Shown here one piece after another: positions 2,434-39,320 of a stretch of DNA of 64,000 nucleotides. Every line of letters begins with the position of its first letter. Within the stretch, counting starts at the first letter, position 1. The stretch spans positions 43,150,632 to 43,214,631 of the forward strand of contig CP154954.1 of assembly GCA_039621445.1 (NCBI GenBank). The letters run 5' to 3'. The translations under genes and the position numbers were made by a program. Source of the stretch: Euglena gracilis. Lineage: Eukaryota. The notes under the pieces are model-generated. The model was not told the origin of the DNA. It made no database searches and saw only the letters and a list, made by a program, of their open reading frames with translations.

Positions 2434-2741
2434 TGTGTACCAGGCGTATGCTTCTGTCCCCTTCCGTTGAGGAAGTTAGGATGGAAGCAGATCCTATTAG
2501 GATTTCCTAATGGGTGCCCCTTCTCTCTCCACAGGTGGTATTCTGTTTGTCTTTCCTTTTCTCCGGACCGGACTTGGTTATCCAGTCCGTCCTCCCTGCA
2601 TTGCTCCGTGCTTTGCTTCTTGGGAAGTGGAAAAAGGGTTTTCACTGTTACTCTGATTTTCAGTTCCCAAGTAGGTGCGCCAAGGCGAAAGCGAAGGCTT
2701 TTGGGAATTGGGAAAGGGGAATTGGGAATCAGACGTACACT
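2434..2741 (+). repeat. 5' LTR (copy 1)
   Basis: TGTGTAC...GTACACT, near-identical to 18600-18907 and 23477-23785. Confidence 0.95.
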
Positions 2742-2765
2742 TGGTAGCAGAGTGGTTCGATCCTA
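2742..2765 (+). promoter_or_regulatory. Primer binding site for tRNA-iMet, plus a second tRNA-complementary box CGATCCTA
   Basis: TGGTAGCAGAG directly after the LTR is complementary to the 3' end of eukaryotic initiator tRNA-Met. Confidence 0.85.
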
Positions 2766-2955
2766 CGCTGACTGGCAGCGGAGAGCCCCCGCACCGTTAT
2801 TACACGGTCGCAGCGTCAGCTCCCGGCTTCTAGTCAACGTCTAAGCAGACGAGCAGGCTCCGGAAGGCCCTGTACGGTATTACCCGTTACAGCCCCTCTG
2901 GCGCCAGCACAACTGCTTAGTTTTGTGTGTTTTTGCTGTTTTCGTCATCAGAAAG

Positions 2956-12074: not shown

Positions 12075-12268
12075 AACGATTTCGTTTTGGAGAATGCGTG
12101 TGTTTTATGTGAATGTTTCGCGTTTATACCCCCCCTGCACTTCATTATTTCTCTATCTTTCTCGCAGAGTTTTGATTAAGATAGAAGCCTTCCTTTTTCA
12201 GTGCTCTCGCACTCAAAGCGACTGACAACAAGGTTACCCTTAGTTGTCGTCGTCGTTCGGGTAGCATC

Positions 12269-15200: not shown

Positions 15201-17775
15201 GCGCCTTCATCGCCCCAGAGGATGAACCTCTGGCGCGAAGGAGACGTGAGGCGTCAGTCGCTTCCACCACTGCGATTCCGCGGCGGGAGGAACGCGACCG
15301 CAGCCCCTCCGTCACCATACTGGAGGCAGCGCCGCCGTCTCCGACAGGAACGGCTGTATCATTCGTCTCTGCCCCGCGAGCGGCAGGGGAACGATCGGTT
15401 TCCCCGGCCCCCGCGACGGCTCACGTCTGTCCACCGGTAGGTGGAGACCAGGAACTTCCTGAGGAGGAAGGTGAGAACGTGGAGGATATCCTCTACGCTG
15501 CTCTGCATGCTCCGGCACAGCCTAGGCCAGACACAGCACCCGCAGGGGATATACCTGTGGATGCTACGCCTGTTCCAACGGCTGAGCCTCCAGCCGAGGT
15601 GACTGGTATGGTCGTCGAGGATATCCTCGAAGAACCTGCCAGTCCCACAGCACGCACCTCGTTAGGAGGCCGTGTGCTCGGCGCCGTGGTCACTGGCATT
15701 ACTGCCGTGGCTGCTGCACTAACGCCACGAGGTGGAGGCGTAGCATCAAGCTCCGCCGCTGAGGTCGTGGAGACACCAGATGTCGGTGTCCCCACACCCC
15801 CGTCTCCGGCAGCAGTGCAACCACCATCAGGGGATGAACCCCAGCCGACAGAGACATCTGTCGCACCGGCTACACCGGAGGATCAACCTCCCGTAGCACC
15901 TGCGCCAGCGGTTGTGGAGGATCAACCTCCTAGACCGGATGTCGAAATGGAAGTGGAGGAGATACCCCCACGACCACCGACACCGCGCAGGGTCCCTGCC
16001 GTCCCGAGGACAATGGCAGAGTTTCTGGGAGTGCCAGCGCCTGTGGAAGCACCGATTCCGGTGACGACCACAGTGCCACGCCTCGTCGGACAGGATGAAC
16101 CTGCTCGGCGACGGCCGGCTGAACAACCCCAGGAACGAGTGCCGACCCCTCGGAGCGTCATGCGCGACCCAGCGGTCAGTATGCCCGCTTCGCCCAGACG
16201 GCAAACGTCTACTCCGGCACCATCGGCTCCTGATACCAGGAGTAAGCCTCCTGATTCCGGGAGTGCGAAGCCGAAAGGAGGCAAACCGGGTGCTACACCC
16301 TGTAAGCCCCCTTCCAAAGGCGGTGATGGGAAACCACCACCGAAAGGTGGCGCTGGAGGTCAGACTGGCGGACAGCCGAAAGGCCCTACGACAATGCACG
16401 ACTATTCGGCCGTTGCATCGTCCGGGTACGGCCAGAGCAAACCGAAAGGTAAGGCTCGTGGTCGACAGGCCCAGTCTTCCGCCGGATCGACGGATGAGGA
16501 GCAGGATGAACCTGCTTCACCTCCTGTGTCTGCGGATGCCCAGCTCTGGACCCAGGATATCCTGACCAGACTAGGCACCGTGGAAGAGAGGACGAAGAAA
16601 CTGGCTGCTATTAGGCACCAGAAAGGGTCACTGAATCGATGGATTCAGCCCCTCTTCGTCCGAGGAGAACCTTTCCACTATGCCCCGGAACATACCTGGA
16701 CATTCTGGAACAGGCGCTCACCCAGAGTACTGGCACAGTACTTTGGCGAGGACTGCGTGTTGGATTTCCAGCACGGCACGTCCTTTGCCTGGACGTGCAC
16801 CGTATGCCACCATGTGCGGCATAACCAACCGCTTGTGCATGTGTGCAAGCGGCAGGTGCAATCCTCGTGGTTCCATCACAGGGCATATGTGCCGAACTGT
16901 GTGGCGCTCGTATGTGGCGAGTGCCTGAATGCCTGGAAGCACAGCTTGAACTACTCCTACAGTGAGAATGCTCACGACAGGGATATCCCTGCCTTGTGCA
17001 TCAACTGTATAGGAGGCAAGTTCGTGCAGACTGCTGATGGAGCAGTCACCACCATTGTCCCCCAGCACTGGGAGACACTGGAGAAGTGGAAGAAGGAGTA
17101 CAAGCAGGTGGAAGGACGCCTGAAGCACTCCGACTTCAAAAAGGTAGAAAGCTACCGCCACACGGGAATGGCCCGTGAGTTCCAGATCGACGCTGGGGCA
17201 ATGCGCCTCGCCGTCGAGGAACACGCCAAGGTAAGAATGCCTTACCTCTGGACTGATGGCGACTGGGAGACACAGGTTTACCCCCTGTTCTCCAAGCGTC
17301 AGCATGGCGGATACGCTTTGCCACTGTGGCCTCCTGAAGAACACGATTGGTGGACTTCAGAGGTTGGTTGGCGGCAGTATTACGGCCCCATACCGCAAGA
17401 GCTCGGACAGCGAGGTGGATGTATGACATCAACTTCAAGCAGACCCCGGGGATGCCCCCGCAGGTGCCTGCGAATCACCCCCGGATGAATTACATCATCT
17501 GGCCGGTGATGCTGCCCAGAATTTTCTGGGAGCAGCTCCAACGGTATCTTCAGCATCATGCTGAACGTACCAGGGAGAAGCTGCCGGATAATTGGATCAA
17601 GGACTGGGAGACCCCTTCCTTTGATGTCAACGATCCGGAGCTCAACACCATTCGGAGTGAATCAGCTCCGCCGCGTTCCCCACGCCAACTGGAGTTGGTT
17701 GAGGACCCATTAGGGGACCCCCAACACGACTACTGGCGTGAGGTCCGCGAACGTCCAGCCGATAAAGGCAGGTGA
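12269..17775 (+). CDS. ORF3, large accessory protein of unknown function (copy 1; stop at 14348, frameshift near 17347)
   Basis: Fragments 12269-14350, 14393-17488 and 17347-17775 match the intact 1838-aa ORF of copy 2. Confidence 0.8.
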
Positions 17776-17815
17776 GGTGTCTGTCAGCGCCAATGCGGCG
17801 TCTTTCAGCACCCTC

Positions 17816-17892
17816 GTCAGGTATTCGCCTGACACCCTGTTTGGGTATTCGCCCGAACAGCCCCTTCGAAGACCCTTTGCGGTATTCGCCGC
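17816..17892 (+). promoter_or_regulatory. Three tandem RNA hairpins with identical UAUUCG loop in the element 3' UTR
   Basis: gtcagg-TATTCG-cctgac; tgtttggg-TATTCG-cccgaaca; gcgg-TATTCG-ccgc. Conserved at ~38930-39005. Confidence 0.7.
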
Positions 17893-18589
17893 TGGTAAGT
17901 TCCCACCGGGATGCTGCCATGTGCAGGATTCCGTGCGCATGCATGCACACCCCTCTCCCCTCTCCCCTCTCGAGGGCGTGCGACACGCAGCGCACAGGGC
18001 CGACGGCCTCTTTTCCTTTCCCTTTCTTTTCTTTTCGGCCGTTTGAGGCCTTAAGGCTGCCAGACAGCACCACTTTTCTGGCCTAAGCCAACCCCCCACT
18101 CCTCTCTACTTTCCCCCCGGGGCAAATGCTGTCGCCGGCAGTTGGTTTTGTAGAGTAGGATTTCCTTTTGCGTGGTCAGGTTTGACTGGCCATGCGCCCT
18201 GCCCAGGTTTGACTGGTCAGAGGCCCCCTCCTTCCACACCCTCCCCATGGGTTTTCCTGGAATGCCCATGGACCCAACCCCAAGTGCCTTGGGCACACCC
18301 AAACTGGGTGGATAGGTTTGCTTGGCAAAGAAACCTGCCAGCACCATTTTCCCCAGTGGGCTATAATATACTATATACCCATAAGCCACCGCAGAATAGG
18401 TGAAACCATTTTGCGCATTTTGTGCTTTTTGGGTCCCCTGCTTTTCCGCCCCCCCCCTTTGAGTGGACCCCTGTGCGACGGAAAGGGCCCCTGTGGATGC
18501 GCCAGGGTGCACCTCCCACAGACCAGGTCTGTGTCCGAAATCCCTGTGGCCAGAATGCCTGGTCCAAAGGGGAAATCGGGCATAGCCCT

Positions 18590-18599
18590 GGGAGGGGGA
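18590..18599 (+). promoter_or_regulatory. Polypurine tract
   Basis: GGGAGGGGGA immediately before the 3' LTR. Confidence 0.85.
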
Positions 18600-18907
18600 T
18601 GTGTACCAGGCGTATGCTTCTGTCCCCTTCCGTTGAGGAAGTTAGGATGGAAGCAGATCCTATTAGGATTTCCTAATGGGTGCCCCTTCTCTCTCCACAG
18701 GTGGTATTCTGTTTGTCTTTCCTTTTCTCCGGACCGGACTTGGTTATCCAGTCCGTCCTCCCTGCATTGCTCCGTGCTTTGCTTCTTGGGAAGTGGGAAA
18801 AGGGTTTTCACTGTTACTCTGATTTTCAGTTCCCAAGTAGGTGCGCCAAGGCGAAAGCGAAGGCTTTTGGGAAATGGGAAAGGGGAATTGGGAATCAGAC
18901 GTACACT
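18600..18907 (+). repeat. 3' LTR (copy 1)
   Basis: 308 bp, 2 substitutions relative to the 5' LTR. Confidence 0.95.
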
Positions 18908-18912
18908 CCCCT

Positions 18913-22660: not shown

Positions 22661-24070
22661 ACCCTCATGACGATCGTAGTAGGCTGCTTACGCCGAAGCA
22701 TGCAGCTTTAAACGGCCAGGTTTGTGGATCGCCGTGGGTTGGTCCACGATTATGGGATATCCCGGAGCGGCACTGCCGGCTCGGGACGCTGCCTGGCGGG
22801 AGACCGTTTAACCGCCAGGCAAGGTTGGGTTTTGGGTTTTGGGTCCCCCCCCCAAATTTTTTTTTTGGGGTACCCCCCCAAAAAACACCAAAAATTCGTA
22901 TTTTTGGGACCCCCTCTTTGAAAAATTTTCCCCTAACCCCTAACTACCTAAAAAAGGCCGATTTTGGCCAATAAAAGCGATTTTTTGAAAATTTTCTGCG
23001 CCTGCGGCGCCCAAAAGTATATCTCACTCCCCTCTGGGCCCTCCAGGGGAGTCCGGCTGGACCCACCCCGGGTAATCCCTGGGGCTGCAGCCGGGATCGA
23101 ACCACCGACCCCGCGTGCAAAGCAGGATTCCTGTCCAACACGTCCAAAAGGATGGAAGCGCACCGGGGGGGGGGGCAGTGCTTATACAAGGCCAGTGTTT
23201 ATACACCGGGGGGGGGGATGGTACAACAAAATTGTGGATTCTGATAAGGGGTGACCGTTGGAATCCAGACTGTTATTTTCGGAGGGAAAATCATGCCCTC
23301 CAGAAATGTGGCCTCTGATTGGGGGGGGGGGGGGATCATTGTAAACCCTCCCCCCAAATAATCCCCCCCCAAATAATACCTCCCCCGGGGTACGACTTCG
23401 GCCACAAAAATAATACCCCCCTCCCCCAGTTTCGGGCCGCAAGCCCGGATTTTTGACCTGAAAATGTAGGTAAAAATGTGTACCAGGCGTATGCTTCTGT
23501 CCCCTTCCGTTGAGGAAGTTAGGATGGAAGCAGATCCTATTAGGATTTCCTAATGGGTGCCCCTTCTCTCTCCACAGGTGGTATTCTGTTTTGTCTTTCC
23601 TTTTCTCCGGACCGGACTTGGTTATCCAGTCCGTCCTCCCTGCATTGCTCCGTGCTTTGCTTCTTGGGAAGTGGGAAAAGGGTTTTTACTGTTACTCTGA
23701 TTTTCAGTTCCCAAGTAGGTGCACCAAGGCGAAAGCGAAGGCTTTTGGGAATTGGGAAAGGGGAATTGGGAATCAGACGTACACTTGGTAGCAGATAAGG
23801 TCACGATCCTACACATACAGCCCATACAGAAAGAAAACGCTATCAAGTATTACACTTGGTAGCAGATTGGTTCGATCCTACGCTGACTGGCAGCGGAGAG
23901 CCCCTGCACCGTTATTACACGGTCGCGGCGTCAGCTCCCGGCTTCTAGTCAACGTCTAAGCAGACGAGCAGGCTCCGGAAGGCTCTGTACGGTATTACCC
24001 GTTACAGCCCCTCTGGTGCCAGCACAACTGCTTAGTTTTGTGGGTTTTTGCTGTTTTTGTCATCAGAAAG

Positions 24071-27000
24071 ATGCAAAGCACAGGCCCCAACCATCAATTC
24101 AATTCTGCCTTATTACAGGCATCATTGCAGGACATAGACCAAGAAAATGGGGATTGGAAGCTTTTATGTGAAAGTGCTTCCAGTTCCCACGCCGATGAGG
24201 CACAATTGATTCAATTGTCACAATTGCAACATTTGTCATCATTGACAGTGGTCGGCGATGAGCCCTCCACATCATTGGCTTCAGAGGCTAATGCGGCCTC
24301 TTCCACACTCACCTTGCCACAACGGGGGTATTCGCCTCTGTCTGCGGTAATGGTGCAGCTGTGCACACCGGAGAGACCCGTGGTGATTCCGCCACCGGGC
24401 TTCTCTGGTGATGGTGGGCTAGAAACCCCGTGTTTCTTTCAACCCCCACCGGCTCTTCCACCGGCAAGCCCTTACGGAGCTTTGCCACCACCACCCGATC
24501 TTGGGTGTTATCCCGCACTACCTTGGCCACCGGAGACTCGCCTAGTGGTACCGGAATTCTCCGGTACGTCCCAACCCATGGATGGCTATGGGAAGGGCAC
24601 TGGTGAGCTCCTCACTGCTGAGGATGTGCAGGATATTGTTGCTCGGCTTCCAGGGGATCACCCCCTTGTGAGGCAGTTCAACCATGTGCAACAATGCGTT
24701 GCAGAGTGTGCAACCTCATTGAACAAAGTGCTTCAGTTTGATGAGGACAACCAGAAACATGTCTTCACCAAGCTGGAACACTGCTGGAATTACTTGCATG
24801 AAGTTGGCAGATATTGCCAGAGGAATTTCGAAAGTGCGGGTAGGATTGACCTTGCAAACTTTCGGGAAACCTTTGACAGAATACGCCAACAGCTCCCGCA
24901 AAACTTCCGGCAAATTAGTGAATGCATGCATGAAGCGGAAACGCGGAATGACTCCAAGTTTCTGCACTTGCATGGATCACTACAACAGTTATCGGGACAA
25001 ATGGAGTCCTGTTCATCTGCGTTGTTGCATTTGCAAAAACAGTTGCATGCACGAGATTCCTAGTCTGCAACATCCAGCAGTGGTGGATTTGTGTCTATGG
25101 ACCATTTCACCACATTGTCTGCAACTTTCCATGAATCGCAACACCGCATTATGCAGTTGTGCGATGAAACGGAAAAGTTTCGGCACTTCCGGTCACAAGC
25201 CAACGAGAATTTTGCTCCCCTCACGTATGTGCGGCAGTTGGAGGAGTGACTTTCCCGTTTGGAGCAGAAAACCTGCTATTGTGACGCGAATCGGGTTGGA
25301 TTATCCAATCTGAGCGCGAAAGTCGCGGAAATGGCACAATGGCAGGATTCCCTGCAGTTGCAGTTGCAATCCGACATTGGCGGGATTAACTCGGCCATTG
25401 CGGGTTTGCAACAAAGCTATTCCGCACTTTCCCACCGAGTTCCGGACATTAGCGGTATTCAGACTGCTATTGGGGAACTCCAGACCCGGTATGCATCGGT
25501 GTCTACCAAAGTAACGGAAATGCAGTCTCTACCTGCAGGTTCCAGTTCTCGAATTACAGAGAACCCTGATTTCAAGGCATTTTATGACAAAATGCTCACT
25601 AACAATCAGGAAACCTTGCAAGATTTCTGCAACAGCCTATTAAGGCTTGAGGAATCGGTGAATCGGAATGCCCGATCCACGCAAAGTGAAATTACCAGGT
25701 TGGATGGGCGAATTTTTGCGTTGTTGGATAGGCCACAACCCGGAAATTTGCCCGTGGGTACCACAACCGCGTTCTCGGATAACCCTGCACCGGTTGCACC
25801 CACCACCACACTAACCAAGGTGACATCACCTTTGCAGATTCTCTCAAATGCTGTAAAAGCATTAATGGGACAACTCCAATTATTGGATAAGTCTCACGGG
25901 AAACTTGTCCAAGATGTAACCGGAATTTCCGAAAGGATTCCGCACTTGGATGACTTTTCCCGTTACCGCAAGCGTATTCGCGCTTTGGAGGATGAAGTTG
26001 ACCGTATTTGCGGCCAACTCCAACTCGTTGAGCATTTGGAGCAAAGTGTGCATGACTTGTCTGTGGGTTTGGATAATGTGTCCAACCAACAGCGGGTTTC
26101 ACACCGCAATTCGGCAGTATGCATTGCCGAAGATGCGCCAAATGTTCCAGAGTCGCGTTTTCATAACCCGGCTCTGGGTGCACATGCACCACCACCACCC
26201 GTGTCCCGAGTGTCACAATCCGCGATTCCGCGAATTGTGCCACCATTGGCCTTGTCCACCACCCAAACCCAGTTTTTGGATGAATCTCCCATTACGGGAA
26301 CCGAATTCGCGGAAAACACGGCGCTTCCGCCAAGTCTCCACCAAGAAATCCATCATTCCATGCTTGTGCGTGGAATGAGCCAAACCCGTACACCGGGAGT
26401 GGGTCACATGTTGCATGCGCGACATACCCCCACACCGGAGAGTCTCCCTATTACGGGTGACCAACAGGGTTTGCGACCGGATTTCCGGTACCAAGAGTCA
26501 CCTTCACCAGAAATTTCACGATTCCGACAAGAATCCGGAAAGGATACGCTTGGTGCTCGAGCGTACCCGGGCCCGAATCCACGGAATACCACCGAGGGCC
26601 AACGGGTTTTTCAGAAAGACTTCAAGGGCACCATCGCAATCGCGAATAAGGTGAAACCCCAGTGGGATGGTGATCCAACCACATGGAGACAGTTTTTCCG
26701 GAACTGGGAGTACTACTGGGCATTGAAAGGGCCAACCCAGGACACAAACCCGGAGGTGATCAAGATGGAATTCATCGATTGCCTCCCTAGGGATGAGAAG
26801 GAGCGCGCGCGACAACTCGTCATTCGCTACCGCGTTTCCTTTGATGACCTGGTGGAGCAATACGCTTCCACCAGTTCAAGTTTGGTCGCTAGGATTACCC
26901 TGGAGACCAAGTGGCGGCAATGCGCCCCACCCGATCGGAAGTGGAAGTCCATTGACCTTTGGTATGCCAAATGGTTAGGACTTGCCGCTGAAGTGGATGA

Positions 27001-28051
27001 ACTCAGTGAAAAGCAAATGCGCGAACAGTTTGACGCTGTTCTCATGCATTTCACGCCTAGCCTCATCAAGGATATCCATCGTGAGGAGTTGGCGGGTAAC
27101 GCAATGACTCTTGACCAACGCTGGAATTATGTTTCCAAGCAACTGAAGCTATCACAGCTTCTTGGTCAGATTCAATCCGCGTATACCGCACACCCAACCG
27201 CTGGATTACCGGCTGGTTCGGTGAACGCATTGCAAAAATCACCGGTTTCACCCGCTTCACCCACCAGGGGATCGAAAACGCGATACCCGCGTTCTTCGGA
27301 CCAAGCCACGGATAAAGTGTGCTTTTTGTGCAACAAATCGGGACAGATGTCTCGGGAATGTCCTAATCCTGAAGCGCGTAAGCGTATTCAGAGTCCGCGA
27401 GGCTCGACGTCATCACGTGGTTCGGGTTCCTCCGCGTTTTCACGCCAATCGGGCAATTCAAGGTCATCGGGTCCCCGTTCCGGTGGTATTAGCCCCCGGA
27501 TCCCGTTCCGCGATGAGCGGAAACACGGTACCCCTCGGGGTAGGTCACCCGGTGCCCCGGCCAAGAAGCGTGATTCTCATCGCGAGGCATCACGATCGCG
27601 TTCGCGAAGCGGATCATCCTCTTCGCGATCCTCATCGGGAAAACCCCGATACACCAATCATGGTCGACGGGATACCCGGTCACCACGACGGTTTGACGGG
27701 AAATCGGGAAACCGATCCCCCCGTTATCCAGATTCGCGACACAAATCTCGGTGTTCGCTTTGTGGATCGAGTGATCACCACTCATCCAAATGTCCGCGTT
27801 CTCGTTCTCCCCGCCCTGGCCAACTTCATCGCGGTATTAATCGCGGTGACAAGGGTCACTCCTCCAACCGCCATAAAGTCGGTTTCAAGATATCTTGTTT
27901 GGAGGATGACACCCCGGCTTCGGGCAGGGATGGGGATGAGACCACGGATACCGATTTCGACGAGGCCCGCATGGCGGTGCGCACGTTGAAATCCGTTTAC
28001 ACCTCTAAAAGGCCCATAGCCGGCTATTCGGCCGGTTCGGACCTGGAGTAG
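24071..28051 (+). pseudogene. gag: Gag copy 2 (premature stops at ~25061 and ~25247)
   Basis: ORFs 24038-25063 and 25259-28051 are in the same frame. TCG>TAG and CGA>TGA relative to copy 1. Confidence 0.85.
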
Positions 28052-31000
28052 GGGAGCCCGAGGTCCGAGGGCACGGACCTCTGGGCTGATGAACAGATGG
28101 AGGTAGGACCTGATCAACCCTGCCCCCCCTGCCCATCTGCCTTCCCGGTCGATACCCGGAAAATTTTCGGGTCCCCCACCCCCCACTCCAACTTTCCGCT
28201 CGGAATGTTGTGCAAAGTAGGAAAGGGTTCATGGGAAAGCTGACAAGAAAACGTATTTTCGCCAGACCCTTCACTTTGCCTACCCCCCATGGAACTTTTG
28301 GTCCAAGCGGAAATCAAAATGCAAAATTTTTGTACAAAAGTCAAAATTCTCATTGACACTGGTTGTCGCAATGCACTACTTTTTCGGTTCGGGTTGATAC
28401 CAACCCCCCTCTTGGTGAAAGCCAAGAAGCCGATCAAAATTACGACGGCTGACAACACCCCTATGTGCGGTGGTGACTTGGGATGCTTTTTGGACATTGT
28501 CCTACCCCTCATCCCCAAGCACCACTCACACCCCCCCCAACCGCAAAATTTTCCGGATACCTGGGGATTTGAATCCGGAATCCATGGTTCTGACGTAATT
28601 CTGGGATACCCCTTTTTACGTCAGCACCGGCTGGTAGTGGATTGCCACTCCCACGGTTTGCGCACATCACCATTCTCCTCATTGCCCCCCAAACCCTCAT
28701 CACCTGTGGCGTCAACCGCGATAGCCACCAATTTTTCCACACCGTTTTCGAAAACTTTTACCCCGTTACCAACCACACCAACCAACGTTTTCCACACCGG
28801 GTGTACGGAGAAAGTTCACCCCCTGCCCATTGACACACCAACTTCCGTTCCCCATGAGGCAGGGCAAGCGAGTAGCGGTACCCCCCTCGTTCCACTGGGT
28901 TACAAGACGAAAGCCCAAAGGCCTGAAGTAGTACGGTGTCGAGTAGTCGCCCAGCTGCGGTAACACCCCGTTTTCCACCAGATGTATCGCTTTCAGATAC
29001 ATCTGTACACCCCCCAGCAGCTACAAAAGCGCATCCCAACTTTTACACACACCCCCACCAGACCAACATGCGCGACCAGGACCACTACTCCGACACTTCC
29101 TTCCAATGTGTGCACTGTAGGAGAATTTCCGCCCAGCCAGATTTCGATTGTGGATGTTTAGTCCAAACACCAACACTAATCCCGATTTCGCGCACCCATA
29201 CACTTGGTTGCGGATCGCAATGCGCGACCGTACATCAAGTGCTCCAACAACGAGGTATTGCCTTGTTGTTTGGGACCGCGAAATCCGTGTCACACACCTC
29301 CCCCACCTCCATCTGGCATGATATGGACTGGGTATGCACCCATCCAACCCATCAACCCTTGGGAATGCCCCTTGGGAGTGTGGATGACACACCCTTGACC
29401 TATGTTTCCGGATCCCTGAATTGCGTTACCGCTCTTCAACCCGCGAACCAGGTCGACACCTACGCGATGCGCGTATGGAACGCATTTAATTTTGGTCAAT
29501 ACCGTATTTTGGAGGAATGGTTCTCCAAAATCGCGGCTTTGGCTGATGCCTTCGATTTGCCGTTGGAAATTGATGCGTTCTCATCAAAAGCGCATGCGCG
29601 CTTGTCGCGATATTGGTCGCGACATACCAACGCATTCCTTAAATTTTGGGGTGATACGGTGCTATGGATGCACCCTCCCCCAAAACTTATCCCAGATGTG
29701 GTGGAGAAAATCCTCCGCGATGAAGCGCGAGGAGCTCTCCTCATACCGGTCAATCCGAATGCGGATTGGTTTCACCAACTATCCTATGTGTGTTTTCATT
29801 GGTGGGATTTACCCGCTGATGTACCACTATTTGAGGATTTTTGTGGTATATTATTACCACCTGTCAAAGAAATCATTTTTCGCGTTTGTTTCTTCGACGC
29901 ATTCGGAATATCCGATTTGCGTGTGCCAAGATACCTTGGTACGGATGGGGATGCCACACCCTCAACGCAGATTTCTGCGGTCATTGAGAGTGCGGACCAA
30001 CATCCCAAGTCTGCTGATTATTGTTCGCGAATTGCTCGCGAATTCCATGGTGTACTGGATAACCCAGTTTACGCCTGCGACATCGACCCCGCGATTCGCG
30101 GTCTGTTCGGTGTTTGCAAAATCGAGCTCAAGGATGGCGCTAAACCTATGCACCGGAAATTCTTCCGTTGCTCGGGTGAACGCGAACAGGCTCTCAACGA
30201 GATGATTGAGAAGCTCATCCAGCGGAAGTGGATTATCCCTTCCAAGAGCGAGTGGACATCACAAGCTTTTGTGGTGCCCAAACCCGCTGACCAGTCTGGT
30301 CAGAAGAAGTGGAGACTGGTGCTGGATTACCGGTACCTGAACTCCCATACGAAGGATGACCCCTTCCCGTTACCGCTGATCGAGGATTTGATCACAAAAC
30401 AATCGGATAACCGGTTGTGGTCAATCTTTGATCTGGAAGACGGTTTCCATCAGATGCATTTGCATCCTGATTCGCAACCGTACACGGCATTCGTGACATC
30501 CAAGGGTGTGTACCAATGGACGGTACCCCCCATTGGTGTTAAGAATGGCCCAGCCATGTTTCAACGCATGATCCAGTGGGTTTTGCGCGAGTTACCGTTT
30601 GCTCTGGTGTACATCGATGATGTACTGGTGGGAACCCAACCGCCATCCGCGAAATCGGGCGAGGATATCCTCGACCCGCATTATCGCGATGTGCGCGCGG
30701 TATTATCCGCGTTCCAAAAGCATGTGCTTTTTGTGAAGGGTTCCAAAATGCACCTGTTTCGCAAAATTATTAAGTTTTGCGGACACATCCTGAGCAACGG
30801 GCAGCGTAAAGCCGCACCCAGTAAGATGGAGGCCATTAAGAAATGGACTCCTGAGGTCATTAAGACCTTAACGCATTTAAAAGGATTTTTGGGATTAGCC
30901 CAATATTACGCGATTTACATGAAAGATTTCGCGAAAATCGCGGTACCCCTAACCCGACAACTCAAAAATCGGACACCCGATAACGCAAAAGTCATTTGGG

Positions 31001-33177
31001 ATGACCAAATGTGCGAGGCCTTGAATAAAATCAAGGACTTGCTCCTCGAGAACGTGGTTCTCGATATCGCGGATCCATACAAACCGTATGTCCTGGAGGT
31101 CGACAGCAGCGATTACGCTGTTGGCGGGGTTCTTAGCCAGCATAATGCGGCGAATGAACTCCGACCTGTGGCTTTCTTCAGCAGGAAGCTACAGGGCGAC
31201 AGCGGGAAAGGACAGGTTAAATGGAGCATTCGCGAAAAGGAGACATATGCCATTGTGCTAATTCTCCAGAAGTTCCGCAGCTGGATAGCCAGCAGCTTGG
31301 TCCAGATACTAGTGTTGACGGATCATGAAAGCCTTCAACACTGGTATACCGAGGACCTGAACAAGGCCATATCATCAGTTGGCAGAAGATGCCGATGGCA
31401 TGAGTTCTTGAGCCAGTTTAACCTGGTGGTAGTTTATACCCCAGGTCATACGCAAAAAGTTGCGGATCCTCTCAGCCGAGCCCCCTGGTATTATCCTGGG
31501 AACCCGGATGAGGGTGATGCGACTTTTCATGGCAGCCATGAGGCTGGCCAGTTCGCACGTCGATCCGACGCTGCGGACAACATGCTCGATTCACTACCCG
31601 TTTGCCGGGTGTATCGCAGCATTGCCATTTCACCATTGCGTGGAAGGCGCCGGCGTGGACGCACTGCCGGACCCCGTCGCATTACGCGTACGGAAACTCC
31701 TACCCCCCTATTTTTCCGCGAATGGGATTATTCGCGTGACCCGGTATATAGTACCATTGTGAATAGACTTCGTAATGGTGAATCCATAGAGAATTATTCT
31801 CTATCACCATTGCGGCTTATTTTCCGGAATGATTCTGGTTATAAATATTGTATACCCCAAGACCTGGTTGATGATGTGATTTTGAGCTATCACAACCATG
31901 GTCACCCTGGGGCCCCCAAACTTCTTTCACTAGTGGGTCGCAGATATTGCACAACCCTGAGTGAAAAAGATTTATATTCGCGCTGTTTGCGAATTTCGCA
32001 ACGGTGCCAAATTTGTCAGGCTGTGAAACCGCGCAGAGGTACCCCCCCTGGTACGATGGACGTTTTCCCCGTACCACCAGACATTTTTACGTCCCTCTGC
32101 ATGGATTTTCTCGAACTTGAACCTTGCAAAGGATCAGATGACCAAATTTACGATTACGTTTTTGTTGTCGTCTGTCGGCTGAGTGGGTACATAGTAGCCA
32201 TTCCATGCCGGAAAGCAGGGTTGACAGCCCAAATTTTGGCATCCATATTCCTGGAGAAATGCATCTGCTTAATGGGTTTACCGAACGAAATCGTGAGTGA
32301 TCAAGATCACTTGATCTCTTCGCGGTTTTTCACAACTTTGTGCGGTTTACTCGGCATTGAGCAGCATTTTTCCATTATATACCGCCCGAAAGGCAATGGT
32401 AGAGCCGAGGCAGCCGTGAAATCCGTTGTCAATATGCTTCGCCTTTCACTGGCGGACTCGGGTAAGAATTGGTTATCCGTTCTTCATTGGTGTTTATTTT
32501 ACATCAATACCTTGCCAGGGTTGGTATTACCACACTCACCATACAAAATTGTTTTCGGACCTGACCCTCCGGCCATAGGGGATATCTCCTCGGAGAGATC
32601 CGCCCGAAGTAGCGTCAGCTGTGAAACGTGGTTTGCAGAAGTGGAATCACTCCGCTCTGCAGTCCAATCACGTATCACAGAAATTCATTCCAACAAACGG
32701 AAATCGTTTTTGCAGAACTTCAACACACCTGTGTATAGTCCAGGTGACCGCGTGTGGGTACGGAATAACCGCACCCGCATGCAATCTTCCAAGCTAGATC
32801 CTCTTTTGCTCGGCCCATGCGAAATTTTGGAGAGGTTAGGTAGTAGCGGGCGATATAAAGTTGCCTTGCCCAACGGGATTGAGGACGTCCATATGGACGA
32901 CTTCAAACCGTACCTAAGCCCCCCAGACGGAAAAGCTATCCCCTGCCTATATTTCAAGCCCCGTTCCAGATTACCTGAAACGGACGACTTTGTGGTCGAT
33001 AAGATAATAGACCACAAGGTCGACAGGGGTGAGCACTACTGGAAAGTTCGCTGGAATGGGTATGGGCCAGAGGAGGACACTTGGGAGCCAGCATCCAGTT
33101 TTGTTGGATATGTCCAACAGGATTGGAAGCTGTGCAACAAGCGCAATAACATAGACATAAACATAAACACTGTCTAA
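28052..33177 (+). CDS. pol: Pol copy 2 (stop at ~28241, frameshift near 28931; MTase-RT-RH-IN-CHD intact in 28936-33177)
   Basis: Same motifs as copy 1, with a 1413-aa open frame from the linker to the chromodomain. Confidence 0.92.
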
Positions 33178-33372
33178 AACGATTTCGTTTTGGAGAATGC
33201 GTGTGTTTTATGTGAATGTTTCGCGTTTATACCCCCCCCTGCACTTCATTATTTCTCTATCTTTCTCGCAGAGTTTTGATTAAGATAGAAGCCTTGCTTT
33301 TTCAGTGCTCTCGCACTCAAAGCGACTGACAACAAGGTTACCCTTAGTTGTCGTCGTCGTTCGGGTAGCATC

Positions 33373-36300
33373 ATGCTACCTGGGCGCGGACCTGGACCAG
33401 GTCCACCATGGCCGCAGCCTTCTGGCGCGCCATACCCCCAGTACCCTCAGTATGCTGAGGCCCCGATTCCGGGTGCCCCACATGCTGAGAGGGTTTCAGC
33501 CCCGGTATTCGCCGCGGCTACCAGCAGCCGGTCCGCATATGCGGTACCAGATCCATCTGCCGTCCAGCAGCCGGCACCTCAGCCACCAGCGCAGCGCAGA
33601 TCGCGCCTGCCCCCGTATGCGGGAGAGATGATCTTCCGCACTACGGAGACGTTGGAGCGGGCGATGCGTATGTGCGCACACCCCCCAACGGAGCCCTTTA
33701 TGCAAGCCCTTTGGGATGCATACTGTGCTCAGTTGTTGGTGGTAGCCAACACCCCTGTGGCTCAGTGGTGTCCCTGTGGTCAGGCCCTGATGACAGGGAG
33801 ACGGTATTTCTCGTCCGCAGCCGATTCCGGCTTCGAACCCGGCGAGACCATGATGGACCTGGGCGTGTATGTGCCGCCCATGCTGCAAACGCAGACGCCG
33901 GTGGGATCCCACACCGTGCATATGCGTGAGCACACGCCCCCACCGGTAGGTGAGGCTGTGCATGTCCCACCTGGGATGACGAGAATTTTTGCTCGCCCGC
34001 CCTCGCCGCAGCGAATGCCGCCGCGCGAGCCGCCAGCGGAGCAATTTGTCTCGCGGTACGCGACGCACGCGGATTACCCGCGCGGCGCACGCGTGCTCCC
34101 AGCCGGACAGTCGGACGTGCCCTCTGAGGCATACGTCCAACACATGTTCATGCACTGGATGCCACAAGCATCACCGGTCGCCCCTGTCCCTGGCGTTGAG
34201 CCACGGAGGCAGGCGGAGCCCATAGTGGTGGAGGATGAACCTCCCCACCGTGAGGCAGCCCGACCACCGAGTGCAGCCCCTGTCCAGACTGGGGATGTCC
34301 CCCGTCGGCAGGAGGCTCCCTACTATCATATGGCACCTCCGGGAACCGAGCAGGATGAGCTTGCTCGGCACTTCCTGCAGGAGCCAGTATTCGCGTCTGA
34401 AGAGCACCGGACGAGGTATTACGCCTCTCTGGCTGCCCTTCAGGGTCGTGGATACACCCCCTACCATCCGTACCACCCGCAGCTGCGGGTGGCGACCCCG
34501 GTATTACCCGGTGAGCCCCCGGCAGGAGCGGCAGGATTACCTGCCACCCTGAAGCGCGATAGGGTTACGGAGAACCTTACCCCACAGCCCAGGCGACCCA
34601 GCCCACGGGACGCGGAAGGCGGTGCGGCAATGCAGGTGGAAGCCAGCCCGGATACCCCGGCTGGGCAACCACCGGCAGTGGCACAGGCAGCGATGAGCCG
34701 TCCTGTTGCCGCAATGCCACCGCCGATCCCTCCGGTATGGAAGGAGCCGCGACCCCCTACGCCGAAACCAAGCCCACGCCAGGCTCCTAGCCAGCGCCCA
34801 GCCACGCCGTCACGGCGACGTGCAGCGGAACGGCAAGGTCCCTCCCCAGAGATGGAATGGGAAGGTACCGAACCGACTCCTGCCGCACCGAGCGCCCGAC
34901 CCTCTGGTATTCGCCAGACAGGGAAGGACAAAGGTAAGGCTGAGGGCAAAGGCAAGGGAGAAGGCAAAGGCGTGGCCGGCAAAGGTAAGGGTGAGGGCAA
35001 GGATAAGGGTACAGCCCGTGAGGAGGAGGAAGAACCAGCACAAGTCCTCTCGGACTTTGAGCAAATGCTCAGGTTCAAGGAGGAGCTGGAGGACGAAGGC
35101 TGGCGAATGCAGCATGATTACCATGTTGCAGGAAACCGCCCCGTCACCCCTCCGGAAGCAGTCATCGAGGTGGTATTACACCACACCGAGAACAGAGTCA
35201 GACAATTCCATTACGGAATTGACCTGTACGCCTTCGAAGGTGAAGGTGGCAGACCCTTGCTGGATGCCCAGCCGGGCTTCTGGGAACTCTGGTTTTGGCT
35301 GGGATACCCCTGCCAGAACTGGGGTCTCTTCAGCGACTCCACTGGCCGCAGTTACCTGCACCAGTTAGGATTTCGGGACCAGCATGCGTTGGCCCGAAGG
35401 CTGAAGGCAATCTTCAACTGTATTCATACAGTCGGACCCCTCGGCGTACAGTGGGAATTCTACCCACTACACCCCGACATCGAACGCCTAATCGAGGTGT
35501 TGTGGTGCAACAACCTTCAGGTATGGCTGGTGAGCCATTACGGCTCCACCTTCCGCGTTAGGCGTGTTTCCCTGGCTTACCCGCAGAGGTATGACCTCTG
35601 CTGTAAGTACTGCCGGCAGGAATTTCCTGTCGACTTCTGGGGATTCGGCGTGCGCGGAAGTCCTCCACCGCCTCGGGATATCCCGGGCCTGGAGATGGGA
35701 CGCCGCATGCTTATGCATGTGTGCCGCGACGCCCCGGATGTCCAGGGCAAAAGTCGCCGCGTCCACAAGCAGCGTATTTTTATGCTGCAGCAGTTCTGGT
35801 GGCGAGCCTGGACCACCTATGTCATGGAGGTGTATATACATCTCCGTGACCCCCAGGACGATAGGCCTGGTATGGAAAGCCTGCCACCGGATTACGGTGA
35901 CGCCATCGAGGGTCCTCGTCGTCGGATTCTCGGCCACCTGCGCCCCAACTGGCACCTGGCTGATATCCGCCTGGAGGAACATTTGCGGCGACAGTTTGGC
36001 GGTACCCTCGACCAGGAGGTATTCCTTCCGCTGAGATCTCACCCGAAGGCCTTCCTCGACCAGCGTATGCCGATTCTGGCATGCGTTCAGGAGTTCGAGG
36101 AGGGCTTTTTCGAGGTCTGGGAGGACACGCGTTACCGCGGCTTCCTGGGCCCGAACAGGCCTGCCAACGCCTGGGTGCAGCCATCATGGCCGCCACCCTG
36201 GCCCAACAGCGCCAGTAGCAGTACGCTGGCCTTTTACAGGCTGGCGGATGCCCAGGGATGCCGATGGCACCCCGACGACCCTCGTTCGCCCGAGGATCTG

Positions 36301-38889
36301 CGCGCCTTCATCGCCCCAGAGGATGAACCTCTGGCGCGAAGGAGACGTGAGGCGTCAGTCGCTTCCACCACTGCGATTCCGCGGCGGGAGGAACGCGACC
36401 GCAGCCCCTCCGTCACCATACTGGAGGCAGCGCCGCCGTCTCCGACAGGAACGGCTGTATCATTCGTCTCTGCCCCGCGAGCGGCAGGGGAACGATCGGT
36501 TTCCCCGGCCCCCGCGACGGCTCACGTCTGTCCACCGGTAGGTGGAGACCAGGAACTTCCTGAGGAGGAAGGTGAGAACGTGGAGGATATCCTCTACGCT
36601 GCTCTGCATGCTCCGGCACAGCCTAGGCCAGACACAGCACCCGCAGGGGATATACCTGTGGATGCTACGCCTGTTCCAACGGCTGAGCCTCCAGCCGAGG
36701 TGACTGGTATGGTCGTCGAGGATATCCTCGAAGAACCTGCCACTCCCACAGCACGCACCTCGTTAGGAGGCCGTGTGCTCGGCGCCGTGGTCACTGGCAT
36801 TACTGCCGTGGCTGCTGCACTAACGCCACGAGGTGGAGGCGTAGCGTCAAGCTCCGCCGCTGAGGTCGTGGAGACACCAGATGTCGGTGTCCCCACACCC
36901 CCGTCTCCGGCAGCAGTGCAACCACCATCAGGGGATGAACCCCAGCCAACAGAGACATCTGTCGCACCGGCTACACCGGAGGATCAACCTCCCGTAGCAC
37001 CTGCGTCAGCGGTTGTGGAGGATCAACTTCCTAGACCGGATGTCGAAATGGAAATGGAGGAGATACCCCCACGACCACCGACACCGCGCAGGGTCCCTGC
37101 CGTCCCGAGGACAATGGCAGAGTTTCTGGGAGTGCCAGCGCCTGTGGAAGCACCGATTCCGGTGACGACCACAGTGCCACGCCTCGTCGGACAGGATGAA
37201 CCTGCTCGGCGACGGCCTGCTGAACAACCCCAGGAACGAGTGCCGACCCCTCGGAGCGTCATGCGCGACCCAGCGGTCAGTATGCCCGCTTCGCCCAGAC
37301 GGCAAACGTCTTCTCCGGCACCATCGGCTCCTGATACCAGGAGTAAGCCGCAGGCGTCGTCTCTTGATTCCGGGAGTGCGAAGCCGAAAGGAGGCAAACC
37401 GGGTGCTGCACCCTGTAAGCCCCCTTCCAAAGGCGGTGATGGGAAACCACCACCGAAAGGTGGCGCTGGAGGTCAGACTGGCGGACAGCCGAAAGGCCCT
37501 ACGACAATGCACGACTATTCGGCCGTTGCATCGTCCGGGTACGGCCAGAGCAAACCGAAAGGTAAGGCTCGTGGTCGACAGGCCCAATCTTCCGCCGGAT
37601 CGACGGATGAGGAGCAGGATGAACCTGCTTCACCTCCTGTGTCTGCGGATGCCCAGCTCTGGACCCAGGATATCCTGACCAGACTAGGCACCGTGGAAGA
37701 GAGGACGAAGAAACTGGCAGCTATTAGGCACCAGACAGGGTCACTGAATCGATGGATTCAGCCCCTCTTCGTCCGAGGAGAACCTTTCCACTATGCCCCG
37801 GAACATACCTGGACATTCTGGAACAGGCGCTCACCCAGAGTACTGGCACAGTACTTTGGCGAGGACTGCGTGTTGTATTTCCAGCACGGCACGTCCTTTG
37901 CCTGGACGTGCACCGTATGCCACCATGTGCGGCATAACCAACCGCTTGTGCATGTGTGCAAGCGGCAGGTGCAATCCTCGTGGTTCCATCACAGGGCATA
38001 TGTGCCGAACTGTGTGGCGCTCGTATGTGGCGAGTGCCTGAACGCCTGGAAGCACAGCTTGAACTACTCCTACAGTGAGAATGCTCACGACAGGGATATC
38101 CCAGCCTTGTGCATCAACTGTATAGGAGGCACGTTCGTGCAGACTGCTGATGGAGCAGTCACCACCATTGTCCCCCAGCACTGGGAGACACTGGAGAAGT
38201 GGAAGAAGGAGTACAAGCAGGTGGAAGGACGCCTGAAGCACTCCGACTTCAAAAAGGTAGAAAGCTACCGCCACACGGGAATGGCCCGTGAGTTCCAGAT
38301 GGACGCTGGGGCAATGCGCCTCGCCGTTGAGGAACATGCCAAGGTAAGAATGCCTTACCTCTGGACTGATTGCGACTGGGAGACACAGGTTTACCCCCTG
38401 TTCTCCAAGCGTCAACATGGCGGATACGCCTTACCACTGTGGCCTCCTGAAGAACACGATTTGGTGGACTTCAGAGGTTGGTTGGCGGCTGTATTACGGC
38501 CCCATACCGCAAGAGCTCGGACAGCGAGGTGGATGTATGACATCAACTTCAAGCAGACCCCGGGGATGCCCCCGCAGGTGCCTGCGAATCACCCCCGGAT
38601 GAATTACATCATCTGGCCGGTGATGCTGCCCAGAATTTTCTGGGAGCAGCTCCGACGGTATCTTCAGCATCATGCTGAACGTACCAGGGAGAAGCTGCCG
38701 GATAATTGGATCAAGGACTGGGAGACCCCTTCCTTTGATGTCAACGATCCGGAGCTCAACACCATCCGGAGTGAATCAGCTCCGCCGCGTTCCCCACGCC
38801 AACTGGAGTTGGTTGAGGACCCATTAGGGGACCCCCAACACGACTACTGGCGTGAGGTCCGCGAACGTCCTGCCGATAAAGGCAGGTAA
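33373..38889 (+). CDS. ORF3, intact 1838-aa accessory protein: Pro/Ala-rich segments, central aromatic domain with CxxC, C-terminal multi-Cys zinc-finger-like domain
   Basis: 5.5-kb open frame with CCKYC and CTVC..HVC..NC..CGEC..CINC. No evident signal peptide or TM helix. Confidence 0.85.
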   Translation: MLPGRGPGPGPPWPQPSGAPYPQYPQYAEAPIPGAPHAERVSAPVFAAATSSRSAYAVPDPSAVQQPAPQPPAQRRSRLPPYAGEMIFRTTETLERAMRMCAHPPTEPFMQALWDAYCAQLLVVANTPVAQWCPCGQALMTGRRYFSSAADSGFEPGETMMDLGVYVPPMLQTQTPVGSHTVHMREHTPPPVGEAVHVPPGMTRIFARPPSPQRMPPREPPAEQFVSRYATHADYPRGARVLPAGQSDVPSEAYVQHMFMHWMPQASPVAPVPGVEPRRQAEPIVVEDEPPHREAARPPSAAPVQTGDVPRRQEAPYYHMAPPGTEQDELARHFLQEPVFASEEHRTRYYASLAALQGRGYTPYHPYHPQLRVATPVLPGEPPAGAAGLPATLKRDRVTENLTPQPRRPSPRDAEGGAAMQVEASPDTPAGQPPAVAQAAMSRPVAAMPPPIPPVWKEPRPPTPKPSPRQAPSQRPATPSRRRAAERQGPSPEMEWEGTEPTPAAPSARPSGIRQTGKDKGKAEGKGKGEGKGVAGKGKGEGKDKGTAREEEEEPAQVLSDFEQMLRFKEELEDEGWRMQHDYHVAGNRPVTPPEAVIEVVLHHTENRVRQFHYGIDLYAFEGEGGRPLLDAQPGFWELWFWLGYPCQNWGLFSDSTGRSYLHQLGFRDQHALARRLKAIFNCIHTVGPLGVQWEFYPLHPDIERLIEVLWCNNLQVWLVSHYGSTFRVRRVSLAYPQRYDLCCKYCRQEFPVDFWGFGVRGSPPPPRDIPGLEMGRRMLMHVCRDAPDVQGKSRRVHKQRIFMLQQFWWRAWTTYVMEVYIHLRDPQDDRPGMESLPPDYGDAIEGPRRRILGHLRPNWHLADIRLEEHLRRQFGGTLDQEVFLPLRSHPKAFLDQRMPILACVQEFEEGFFEVWEDTRYRGFLGPNRPANAWVQPSWPPPWPNSASSSTLAFYRLADAQGCRWHPDDPRSPEDLRAFIAPEDEPLARRRREASVASTTAIPRREERDRSPSVTILEAAPPSPTGTAVSFVSAPRAAGERSVSPAPATAHVCPPVGGDQELPEEEGENVEDILYAALHAPAQPRPDTAPAGDIPVDATPVPTAEPPAEVTGMVVEDILEEPATPTARTSLGGRVLGAVVTGITAVAAALTPRGGGVASSSAAEVVETPDVGVPTPPSPAAVQPPSGDEPQPTETSVAPATPEDQPPVAPASAVVEDQLPRPDVEMEMEEIPPRPPTPRRVPAVPRTMAEFLGVPAPVEAPIPVTTTVPRLVGQDEPARRRPAEQPQERVPTPRSVMRDPAVSMPASPRRQTSSPAPSAPDTRSKPQASSLDSGSAKPKGGKPGAAPCKPPSKGGDGKPPPKGGAGGQTGGQPKGPTTMHDYSAVASSGYGQSKPKGKARGRQAQSSAGSTDEEQDEPASPPVSADAQLWTQDILTRLGTVEERTKKLAAIRHQTGSLNRWIQPLFVRGEPFHYAPEHTWTFWNRRSPRVLAQYFGEDCVLYFQHGTSFAWTCTVCHHVRHNQPLVHVCKRQVQSSWFHHRAYVPNCVALVCGECLNAWKHSLNYSYSENAHDRDIPALCINCIGGTFVQTADGAVTTIVPQHWETLEKWKKEYKQVEGRLKHSDFKKVESYRHTGMAREFQMDAGAMRLAVEEHAKVRMPYLWTDCDWETQVYPLFSKRQHGGYALPLWPPEEHDLVDFRGWLAAVLRPHTARARTARWMYDINFKQTPGMPPQVPANHPRMNYIIWPVMLPRIFWEQLRRYLQHHAERTREKLPDNWIKDWETPSFDVNDPELNTIRSESAPPRSPRQLELVEDPLGDPQHDYWREVRERPADKGR

Positions 38890-39320
38890 GGTGTCTGTCA
38901 GCGCCAATGCGGCGTCTTTCAGCACCCTCGTCAGGTATTCGCCTGACATCCTGTTTGGGTATTCGCCCGAACAGCCCCTTTGAAGTCCTTTGCGGTATTC
39001 GCCGCTAGTAAGTTCCCACCGGGATGCTGCCATGTGCAGGATTCCGTGCGCATGCATGCACACCCCTCTCCCCTCTCGCGGGCGTGCGACACGCAGCGCA
39101 CAGGGCCGACGGCCTCTTTTCCTTTCCCTTTCTTTTCTTTTCGGCCGTTTGAGGCCTTAAGGCTGCCAGACAGCACCATTTTTCTGGCCTAAGCCAACCC
39201 CCCACTCCTCTCTACTTTCCCCCCGGGGCAAATGCTGTCGCCGGCAGTTGGTTTTGTAGAGTAGGATTTCCTTTTGCGTGGTCAGGTTTGACTGGCCATG
39301 CGCCCTGCCCAGGTTTGACT

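Follow-up and report, generated by a model that had tools for sequence, protein, structure and literature searches.

A large orphan third open reading frame under purifying selection in a long terminal repeat retrotransposon of Euglena gracilis

The DNA analysed here (the window) is a stretch of 64,000 nucleotides from Euglena gracilis, assembly GCA_039621445.1, contig CP154954.1, positions 43,150,632 to 43,214,631 of the forward strand. It holds two copies of a long terminal repeat (LTR) retrotransposon, which are 98.1% alike over 15.5 kb by self-BLAST. In each copy the pol gene is followed on the same strand by a third large open reading frame (ORF), here called ORF3. ORF3 is very probably a genuine accessory gene of the element that has been kept by selection. 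Its product is modular: a basic Gly/Lys-rich (G/K-rich) tract stands before each of its two conserved Cys/His domains, and long disordered Pro/Ala-rich segments join them. The family has no detectable link to any described protein family.

An intact reading frame under purifying selection

The two versions of ORF3 in the window, in window coordinates, are:

33373..38889, + strand: ORF3 of copy 2, intact
12269..17775, + strand: ORF3 counterpart of copy 1, broken by two lesions

In copy 2 the frame runs for 1838 amino acids from the ATG at 33373 to the TAA at 38887-38889. The longest open frames in the remaining five frames across the same stretch are only 146-231 amino acids long. Shuffling the bases of this stretch 200 times never produced an open frame above 307 amino acids (mean of the longest, 202), and chance therefore does not account for the 1838-residue frame. 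The G+C content of ORF3 is 0.612 vs 0.496 for pol, which confirmed the description of ORF3 in the first-pass annotation as a sense frame richer in G+C than pol. That annotation also placed the frame in both copies. A counterpart is present in copy 1, but only copy 2 is intact: in copy 1 codon 694 (14348-14350) is a TAG, and one base pair is deleted near codon 1696 (about 17346). The protein is rich in Pro (13.3%), Ala (10.1%) and Arg (8.5%), with blocks of Pro and Ala. However, the G+C excess is not merely due to Pro, Ala and Gly codons, because G+C at third codon positions (GC3) is also higher in the two folded domains (0.69 in the central and 0.68 in the C-terminal domain) than in gag and pol (0.53).

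Comparison of the two copies showed that ORF3 evolved under purifying selection within the element lineage. The copies differ by 51.5 synonymous changes over 1342 sites and 51.5 non-synonymous changes over 4150 sites, giving a ratio of non-synonymous to synonymous differences per site (pN/pS) of 0.32 for the whole frame (binomial p=1e-8 against neutrality). Lack of constraint, which the first-pass annotation had named as a finding that would speak against a functional gene, was thus looked for and not seen. By region, pN/pS is 0.38 in the N-terminal region (p=0.02), 0.30 in the central domain (p=3e-5) and 0.15 in the C-terminal domain (p=1.7e-4). The linker between the two domains has a value of 0.67, which is not significant. 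The copies differ from each other by 1.9%, vs 0.65% between the two LTRs of copy 1; most of the divergence between copies must therefore have built up before insertion, in lineages that were still replicating. The differences are not evenly spread. A local peak at 35477-36476, over the central domain, reaches 47 substitutions per kb vs 5-27 elsewhere, and, with pN/pS still at 0.30 there, suggests recombination between sub-lineages of the element.

The stop codon of ORF3 sits within a string that resembles a 5' splice donor, CAG/GTAAGG in copy 2 (38883-38892). The equivalent in copy 1 is CAG/GTGAGG (17769-17778).

Two Cys/His domains joined by disordered tracts

The regions and motifs of ORF3 are:

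33373..35034, + strand: N-terminal region, residues 1-554, Pro-rich and partly ordered, with a G/K repeat at its end
35035..36342, + strand: central aromatic domain, residues 555-990, with the motif YPQ.Y...C..C......DFWG...R
35602-35724, + strand: Cys/His site of the central domain, C744-x2-C747-x34-H782-x-C784
36343..37644, + strand: linker, residues 991-1424, disordered, rich in Pro, Ala, Gly and Lys
36766-36822, + strand: borderline hydrophobic segment within the linker, residues 1132-1150
37645..38886, + strand: C-terminal domain, residues 1425-1838, with a Cys/His cluster, a helical part and a tail motif
37909-38121, + strand: C-terminal Cys/His cluster, residues 1513-1583
residues ~1603-1720, + strand: helical sub-domain, the only part of the domain modelled with a predicted local distance difference test (pLDDT) score of 70-80 by AlphaFold2
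38560-38643, + strand: tail motif PG.P.Q..N.P...IWP, within residues 1730-1757

The motifs listed in the first-pass annotation were all located within this frame. Besides the Pro/Ala blocks, the G/K repeat corresponds to residues 518-546 and is encoded by a period-18 array at 34925-35008 (Tandem Repeats Finder), and a CCKYC motif lies at residues 743-747. The C-terminal cluster reads C1513-x2-C1516-x10-H1527-x-C1529-x17-C1547-x4-C1552-x2-C1555-x24-C1580-x2-C1583. A second G/K-rich tract forms the end of the linker and precedes the C-terminal domain. The central and C-terminal domains were also considered as products of an internal duplication; this was rejected, with an hhalign probability of 0.1%.

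Relatives of ORF3

Residues 555-1754 were used as the query of a HMMER pass over 1.84 billion representative proteins at E<=0.001. Twenty proteins of 74-506 amino acids were recovered, 12 of them at E<=1e-10 and two at E<=1e-30. Eight are fragments (P0003, P0004, P0005, P0006, P0010, P0013, P0018 and P0019) with 42-70% identity to ORF3 across residues ~555-1600, and would fit transcribed copies of sister families of the element. Other, more distant relatives fall on one or the other domain and are more telling. P0014 and P0021 (22-25% identity) share with P0013 (42-45%) the motif of the central domain, where the C744-x2-C747...H782-x-C784 site is invariant in 4/4 sequences. The C-terminal cluster is common to P0007, P0011, P0012, P0016, P0017 and P0020 (25-35% identity), and the tail motif is invariant in 5/5 sequences. 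Since the Cys and His residues of the cluster persist at identities as low as 25-30%, a metal-binding C-terminal module is plausible. In addition, P0011 and P0021 have Pro/Ala-rich tracts beside the domain, as ORF3 does.

Further searches added little to this set. A word-index search with residues 540-1838 against proteins of 1010-3217 amino acids gave no match among 8000 scored candidates, and among shorter proteins found P0002 only. A search with the profile of an alignment of the C-terminal domain (A1, 10 members) returned P0011 and P0002 only. Two scans of JGI metagenome contigs gave 64 and 229 pattern matches and two scans of IMG/VR gave 18 and 41, none of which was confirmed.

Two database proteins, P0008 and P0015, otherwise resemble host signalling proteins and contain a piece of 36-74 amino acids that is 78-97% identical to the ORF3 linker. 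The matching piece lies at 36844-37065 in copy 2 and 15743-15964 in copy 1. P0015 also has a weak Response_reg match (E 4e-4), which is under the cut-off. The shared piece is either an exonised fragment of the element or the result of chimeric transcript assembly.

An accessory gene of the element or a passenger

ORF3 belongs to the element because it lies between pol and the polypurine tract (PPT) and 3' LTR, inside a copy bounded by LTRs and a target-site duplication (TSD). It is on the same strand as pol and thus has the position of a sense additional ORF (aORF). Both window copies that reach the region carry it (2/2); a sister element in the window ends after gag. The first-pass annotation had called it a non-Env accessory ORF of an LTR element, which the position bears out, and no env family was matched in Pfam.

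A different account of the same position is that ORF3 is a captured host or foreign gene carried along as a passenger and useless to the element. Its G+C and GC3 values are clearly unlike those of gag and pol, and plant aORFs confined to few copies have been explained in this way (PMC7264820). We regard this account as unlikely for ORF3. A useless gene would be expected to drift neutrally in dead copies, yet pN/pS is 0.15-0.38 in three of the four regions. Moreover, the fragments of 42-67% identity extend over much of ORF3, a divergence comparable to that of the sister gag (62% identity). This speaks for a long stay in an element family that was diversifying, the fragments being known as proteins only. 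ORF3 could have been captured and still serve the element today. With a GC3 above the values of gag and pol, a separate origin is suggested; ORF3 may have been acquired elsewhere, for example as a captured host or foreign gene, long before the copies and the family diverged.

Known families, folds and the zinc-finger question

The first-pass annotation had read the C-terminal cluster as a RING/PHD/ADD-like zinc finger and proposed profile searches and AlphaFold-type modelling to examine it. These yielded no family and no confident fold for either domain. At E<=0.01 Pfam gave no family for the whole of ORF3 and none for its N-terminal part. At E<=5, searches with all members of A1 and of the corresponding alignment of the central domain (A2, 7 rows) gave only single-member rows, with no family in more than one member. 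PDB sequence and profile searches gave nothing under E 0.35, and no PHROGs family was matched by ORF3. The best matches in VIA-align (48,161 chains) had Z scores of 5.3 and 4.0, inside the stated noise of the tool, and neither model found a match in BFVD with Foldseek at E<=0.001. In the ESM Atlas the best scores were 0.79 for residues 1425-1838 (RING-type clusters) and 0.76 for residues 555-990 (a DNA methylase cluster), scores that shuffled proteins also reach. None of these failed structure searches shows that the folds of ORF3 are new; having no known relatives, the two conserved Cys/His domains are candidates for new folds.

A cross-brace finger of the RING/PHD/ADD kind would make ORF3 a ubiquitin-ligase or chromatin-reader effector working with the Dam-like methyltransferase and the chromodomain encoded in pol. 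The cluster is conserved in relatives, and the element already has two epigenetic modules, as seen in its own pol and in the preprint on Euglena elements (10.64898/2026.05.21.726589). The neighbours among RING-finger clusters in the ESM Atlas have scores of only 0.75-0.79, which shuffled proteins often reach. In VIA-align the cluster is matched to ZZ and LIM fingers with Z scores of 2.8-3.4 only, and these matches carry no weight because the model has pLDDT <50 across the cluster. None of the 10 A1 members matches a RING, PHD or ADD model of Pfam at E<=5. The only zinc-finger rows, each in one member, are zf-FCS (E 0.058) and RIM2a_ZnF (E 3.4), and the PDB profile search gave no relevant match.

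The spacing of the ligands also disagrees with this class. In a RING cross-brace, 2-3 residues separate ligands 4 and 5. The PHD consensus (C4HC3) is C-x2-C-x(8-21)-C-x(2-4)-C-x(4-5)-H-x2-C-x(12-46)-C-x2-C. In ORF3, H1527-x-C1529 is followed by 17 residues up to C1547 or 22 up to C1552, so neither spacing is matched. Nor is there a Cys 2-4 residues before C1547, or an H-x2-C at the position of the fifth and sixth ligands. A RING/PHD/ADD finger is on these grounds improbable. An integrase-type HHCC reading of H1517/H1521...C1552/C1555 was dropped as H1521 is not kept in P0011 or P0020.

An Env-like membrane protein serving cell-to-cell or particle transfer would occupy the same place in the element, as do the env genes of errantiviruses and the env-like aORFs of plants (PMC7264820, PMC5408684). 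The most hydrophobic 19-residue window of ORF3, residues 1132-1150, is the single stretch that could suggest a membrane anchor; with a Kyte-Doolittle value of 1.6 it is borderline. It is Ala/Gly-rich and lies in the disordered linker, and the aligned P0004 has a Pro in the middle of it. The N-terminus, MLPGRGPGPGPPWPQPSG, is not hydrophobic, so no signal peptide is indicated (judged by hydropathy and not by a dedicated signal-peptide predictor). The earlier view that ORF3 lacks a signal peptide thus agrees with the hydropathy; as for a transmembrane segment, the one borderline stretch is all that was seen. Pfam has no envelope family for ORF3, and neither the composition (13% Pro, 8.5% Arg) nor the long disordered stretches resemble a fusion glycoprotein. 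An Env function is therefore very improbable.

Finally, the reading of the central domain as a degenerate cytosine-5 DNA methyltransferase (DNMT) in an 'EpiLTR'-like element, which draws on the top ESM Atlas match for residues 555-990 (under the noise level of the Atlas), on a GYPCQ at residues 644-648 with an F.G.GG-like string ~25 residues upstream and on the presence of DNMTs in a subset of Euglena DAM-LTRs (10.64898/2026.05.21.726589), is close to refuted and the least probable of all: hhalign of A2 against E. coli Dcm and four phage C5-methyltransferases gave a probability of 0.3% (E 0.2), PCQ is found in 1/3 covering sequences and is absent from P0014 and P0021, no DNA_methylase match appears in Pfam at E<=5, and no methyltransferase fold is among the VIA-align matches, the best of which for this domain has Z 4.0.

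The host element and its surroundings

The element that carries ORF3 is best explained as a young Ty3/gypsy chromovirus-type LTR retrotransposon of the Dam-bearing ('DAM-LTR') kind. Its features outside ORF3 are:

2434..18907, + strand: copy 1, complete element of ~16.5 kb, delimited by self-BLAST and boundary sequences
2434-2741 and 18600-18907, + strand: LTRs of copy 1, 99.35% identical to each other
2429-2433 and 18908-18912: target duplication of copy 1, 5 bp, CCCCT
18590-18599, + strand: PPT of copy 1, GGGAGGGGGA, immediately 5' of the 3' LTR
23477..23785, + strand: 5' LTR of copy 2, ~309 bp, starting with TGTG, 97-99% identical to both LTRs of copy 1
24038..25063, + strand: ORF 'o1', 341 amino acids, no Pfam family, pN/pS 0.38 between copies
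25259..28051, + strand: gag-like ORF, 930 amino acids, with a coiled-coil region and a CCHC knuckle at residues 832-845
28289..28963, + strand: protease ORF, 224 amino acids, DTG at residue 23, overlapping the start of pol, assigned by motif only
28936..33177, + strand: pol, 1413 amino acids, with a Dam-like segment, reverse transcriptase (YIDD), RNase H, integrase (H2C2, core, SH3) and chromodomain
33178..33372, + strand: spacer between pol and ORF3, 195 nucleotides, with three stops in the pol frame
33270-33271 and 33304-33305, + strand: AG ends of pyrimidine tracts, 102 and 68 nucleotides upstream of the ORF3 ATG
38890..39320, + strand: 3' untranslated region of copy 2, ending at an inverted sister fragment, with no 3' LTR in the window

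The 5' LTR is directly followed by a sequence resembling a primer-binding site (PBS) in copy 1, TGGTAGCAGAG, and a PBS-like sequence, TGGTAGCAGA, stands next to the 5' LTR in copy 2. The zinc knuckle of the gag-like ORF has the form C-x2-C-x4-H-x4-C. In Pfam this ORF gave an NPV_P10-type coiled-coil match, and a zf-CCHC match was obtained on the inverted fragment copy. The protease ORF had no Pfam match. In pol, RVT_1 (4e-25), RT_RNaseH_2 (9e-24), Chromo (5e-10) and rve (1e-7) were matched; the Dam-like segment at residues 200-280 reached E 2.2e-4 and 21.4 bits with the Pfam Dam model, which is under the cut-off of 28.1.

Three stops interrupt the pol frame within the spacer, which also differs between the copies by a 1-bp indel that alters the frame of ORF3 relative to pol. 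ORF3 is therefore a separate cistron, and read-through from pol into ORF3 is ruled out. The two AG sites of the spacer, on their sequence, are candidate splice or trans-splice acceptors. Downstream of ORF3, ~825 bp of untranslated sequence separate it from the PPT.

Some other features of the locus were noted. The ORF o1, whose equivalent in copy 1 lies at 2923-3945, would add a second unexplained gene to the element. The last ~385 bp and the 3' LTR of copy 2 have been replaced by an inverted fragment of a sister copy (39318-41392, - strand), which contains the end of gag, the protease and the start of pol. The diverged sister element (41653-45861, + strand) has a gag 62% identical and stops after it; copy 2, the inverted fragment and the sister element form a nest of related elements. 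Upstream of the copies, the DNA at 1358-2314 and at 20867-22147 is about 74-75% alike. Both copies therefore sit within or beside members of one and the same older repeat, at different sites within it. The observed/expected ratio of CpG is ~1.0 in gag and pol, 0.82 in ORF3, 0.49 in the LTR and 0.45-0.61 in the flanks; the coding interior is thus not depleted of CpG, and heavy CpG methylation is reported for this genome.

Expression

Transcription of ORF3 had been proposed as a further check, and the support obtained is thin. On the positive side, P0002 (eukprot:EG_transcript_25142) matches copy 1 at 99.6% and copy 2 at 98.3% identity along 230 amino acids, and names of the form EG_transcript_N are those used for the Euglena gracilis transcriptome (PMC6366073). 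A leaf-litter metatranscriptome (X3) has contigs that match gag, pol and the 3' third of ORF3 at 95-99%, although carry-over of DNA is possible there. On the negative side, depth over ORF3 was near zero in two cDNA RNA-seq runs of the same species label (X21 and X22), of which about 5% of the reads were taken. At this depth the reads are silent either way on a sub-genomic mRNA.

A few RNA reads, three from X21 and two from X22, join position 23495, 19 nucleotides into the 5' LTR, to 39230 in the 3' untranslated region, with CTCT in between. They are too few to interpret.

A proposed role in the nucleus

The mechanism proposed is that ORF3 serves the element in the nucleus. The two Cys/His modules would bind zinc, as their sequence suggests, and the protein would act as a nucleic-acid- or chromatin-associated scaffold, to the benefit of the element. 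One option is the handling of genomic RNA, for which CERV of the Caenorhabditis elegans element Cer1 (PMC10309623) could be a precedent by analogy. The other is the shielding of a new copy from silencing, beside the Dam-like and chromo modules. The protein might be translated from a sub-genomic mRNA, either cis-spliced or trans-spliced to a spliced leader at the AG sites of the spacer. As a whole this nuclear zinc-scaffold mechanism is tentative and on balance doubtful in its present form; when it is blended with the gene status of ORF3 into a single explanation, that explanation is somewhat favoured.

Several points weigh against this explanation. The selection test compares only two copies, one of them already broken, and the function of ORF3 is an inferred one. 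The case for zinc binding is made from the conserved Cys and His residues of the modules. Their conservation has exceptions: P0003 is decayed, with residues other than Cys or His at four ligand columns of the cluster and gaps at four more, and P0020 is without 2 of the 10 cluster ligands. The AlphaFold2 models are poor, with mean pLDDT of 44.8 and 46.0, and were made from shallow alignments (10 and 7 rows). Residues 1-554 were compared with Pfam, PDB and PHROGs only. The distant relatives are known as proteins without genomic context, and it is not established that the family is always borne by elements. As for expression, the depth over ORF3 did not exceed 0.95 in X21 or 0.19 in X22. Size-fractionated RNA (run X24) covered the whole element at ~0-3x in both orientations, where carry-over of DNA is possible. 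With RNA depth near zero, the surroundings of the proposed acceptors showed no joint, no start and no loose end, and LTR expression in E. gracilis is described as low or undetectable (10.64898/2026.05.21.726589).

Significance and known systems

LTR retrotransposons can do with gag and pol. The genome of Euglena is heavily methylated, and its transcripts undergo trans-splicing. A gene that is longer than pol and yet selectively maintained must pay its way, and ORF3, as yet unexamined, is probably important for the persistence of the element in this genome. A bolder claim, which seems improbable, is that ORF3 is the first of a new class of zinc-binding effectors of chromatin or RNA encoded by retrotransposons, with relatives across euglenid retroelements. 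ORF3 would in that case be a third module of an 'epigenetic toolkit' beside the Dam-like methyltransferase and the chromodomain. The element could then establish or maintain a permissive state, or have its RNA exported, in a genome that is methylated at CpG by default. A role in the epigenetic strategy of the element, if shown, would be of high interest; practical value is at present limited.

Among the closest known systems are the Dam-bearing LTR elements of E. gracilis described in a preprint of May 2026 (10.64898/2026.05.21.726589), which have chromodomains and in some cases also a DNMT. The same preprint states that eukaryotic DAMs align only partly with prokaryotic ones. The present element shares with these DAM-LTR/EpiLTR elements the host, the Ty3/gypsy-like reverse transcriptase, RNase H and integrase, and the chromodomain; its pol also has the weak Dam-like segment. 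It differs in that no DNMT was found in it by Pfam or profile comparison, and in the presence of ORF3, as the main text of the preprint describes pol-borne domains only. A third ORF is unmentioned in that main text, supplements being outside the scope: 'accessory' and 'zinc' occur 0 times and 'ORF' four times in other senses. Full-text literature searches found no paper on an additional ORF of a Euglena retroelement.

Among zinc fingers, those of the RING, PHD and ZZ kind resemble the C-terminal cluster in having 8-10 conserved Cys/His in ~70 residues. They differ from it in ligand spacing; ORF3 has no profile match to them and a structural Z of ~3 on a low-confidence model.

Among LTR elements, the sense aORFs of plants (PMC7264820) are like ORF3 in their position between pol and the 3' LTR, their orientation, their occurrence in more than one copy and their mostly obscure function. 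ORF3 differs from them in being far larger, in not being env-like and in belonging to a euglenozoan chromovirus-type element, and no sequence relation was found. The LTR elements of bdelloid rotifers have likewise captured varied non-env third ORFs (PMC5408684). Those ORFs belong to families, namely GDSL esterase, DEDDy exonuclease and a paramyxovirus-type fusion protein, whereas the Euglena ORF3 belongs to none. In this last respect ORF3 resembles CERV of Cer1, which is also a novel, family-less accessory protein of an LTR element. CERV is a nuclear protein translated from a spliced sub-genomic mRNA, and export of the genomic RNA depends on it (PMC10309623). It is a functional precedent only: splicing, nuclear location and a role in RNA handling are properties of CERV that are proposed, by analogy, for ORF3. 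Extra ORFs between pol and the 3' LTR are thus a known phenomenon (PMC7264820, PMC5408684). What is new here is the protein itself, an orphan family, larger than pol, in the just-described methyltransferase-bearing elements of a euglenozoan.

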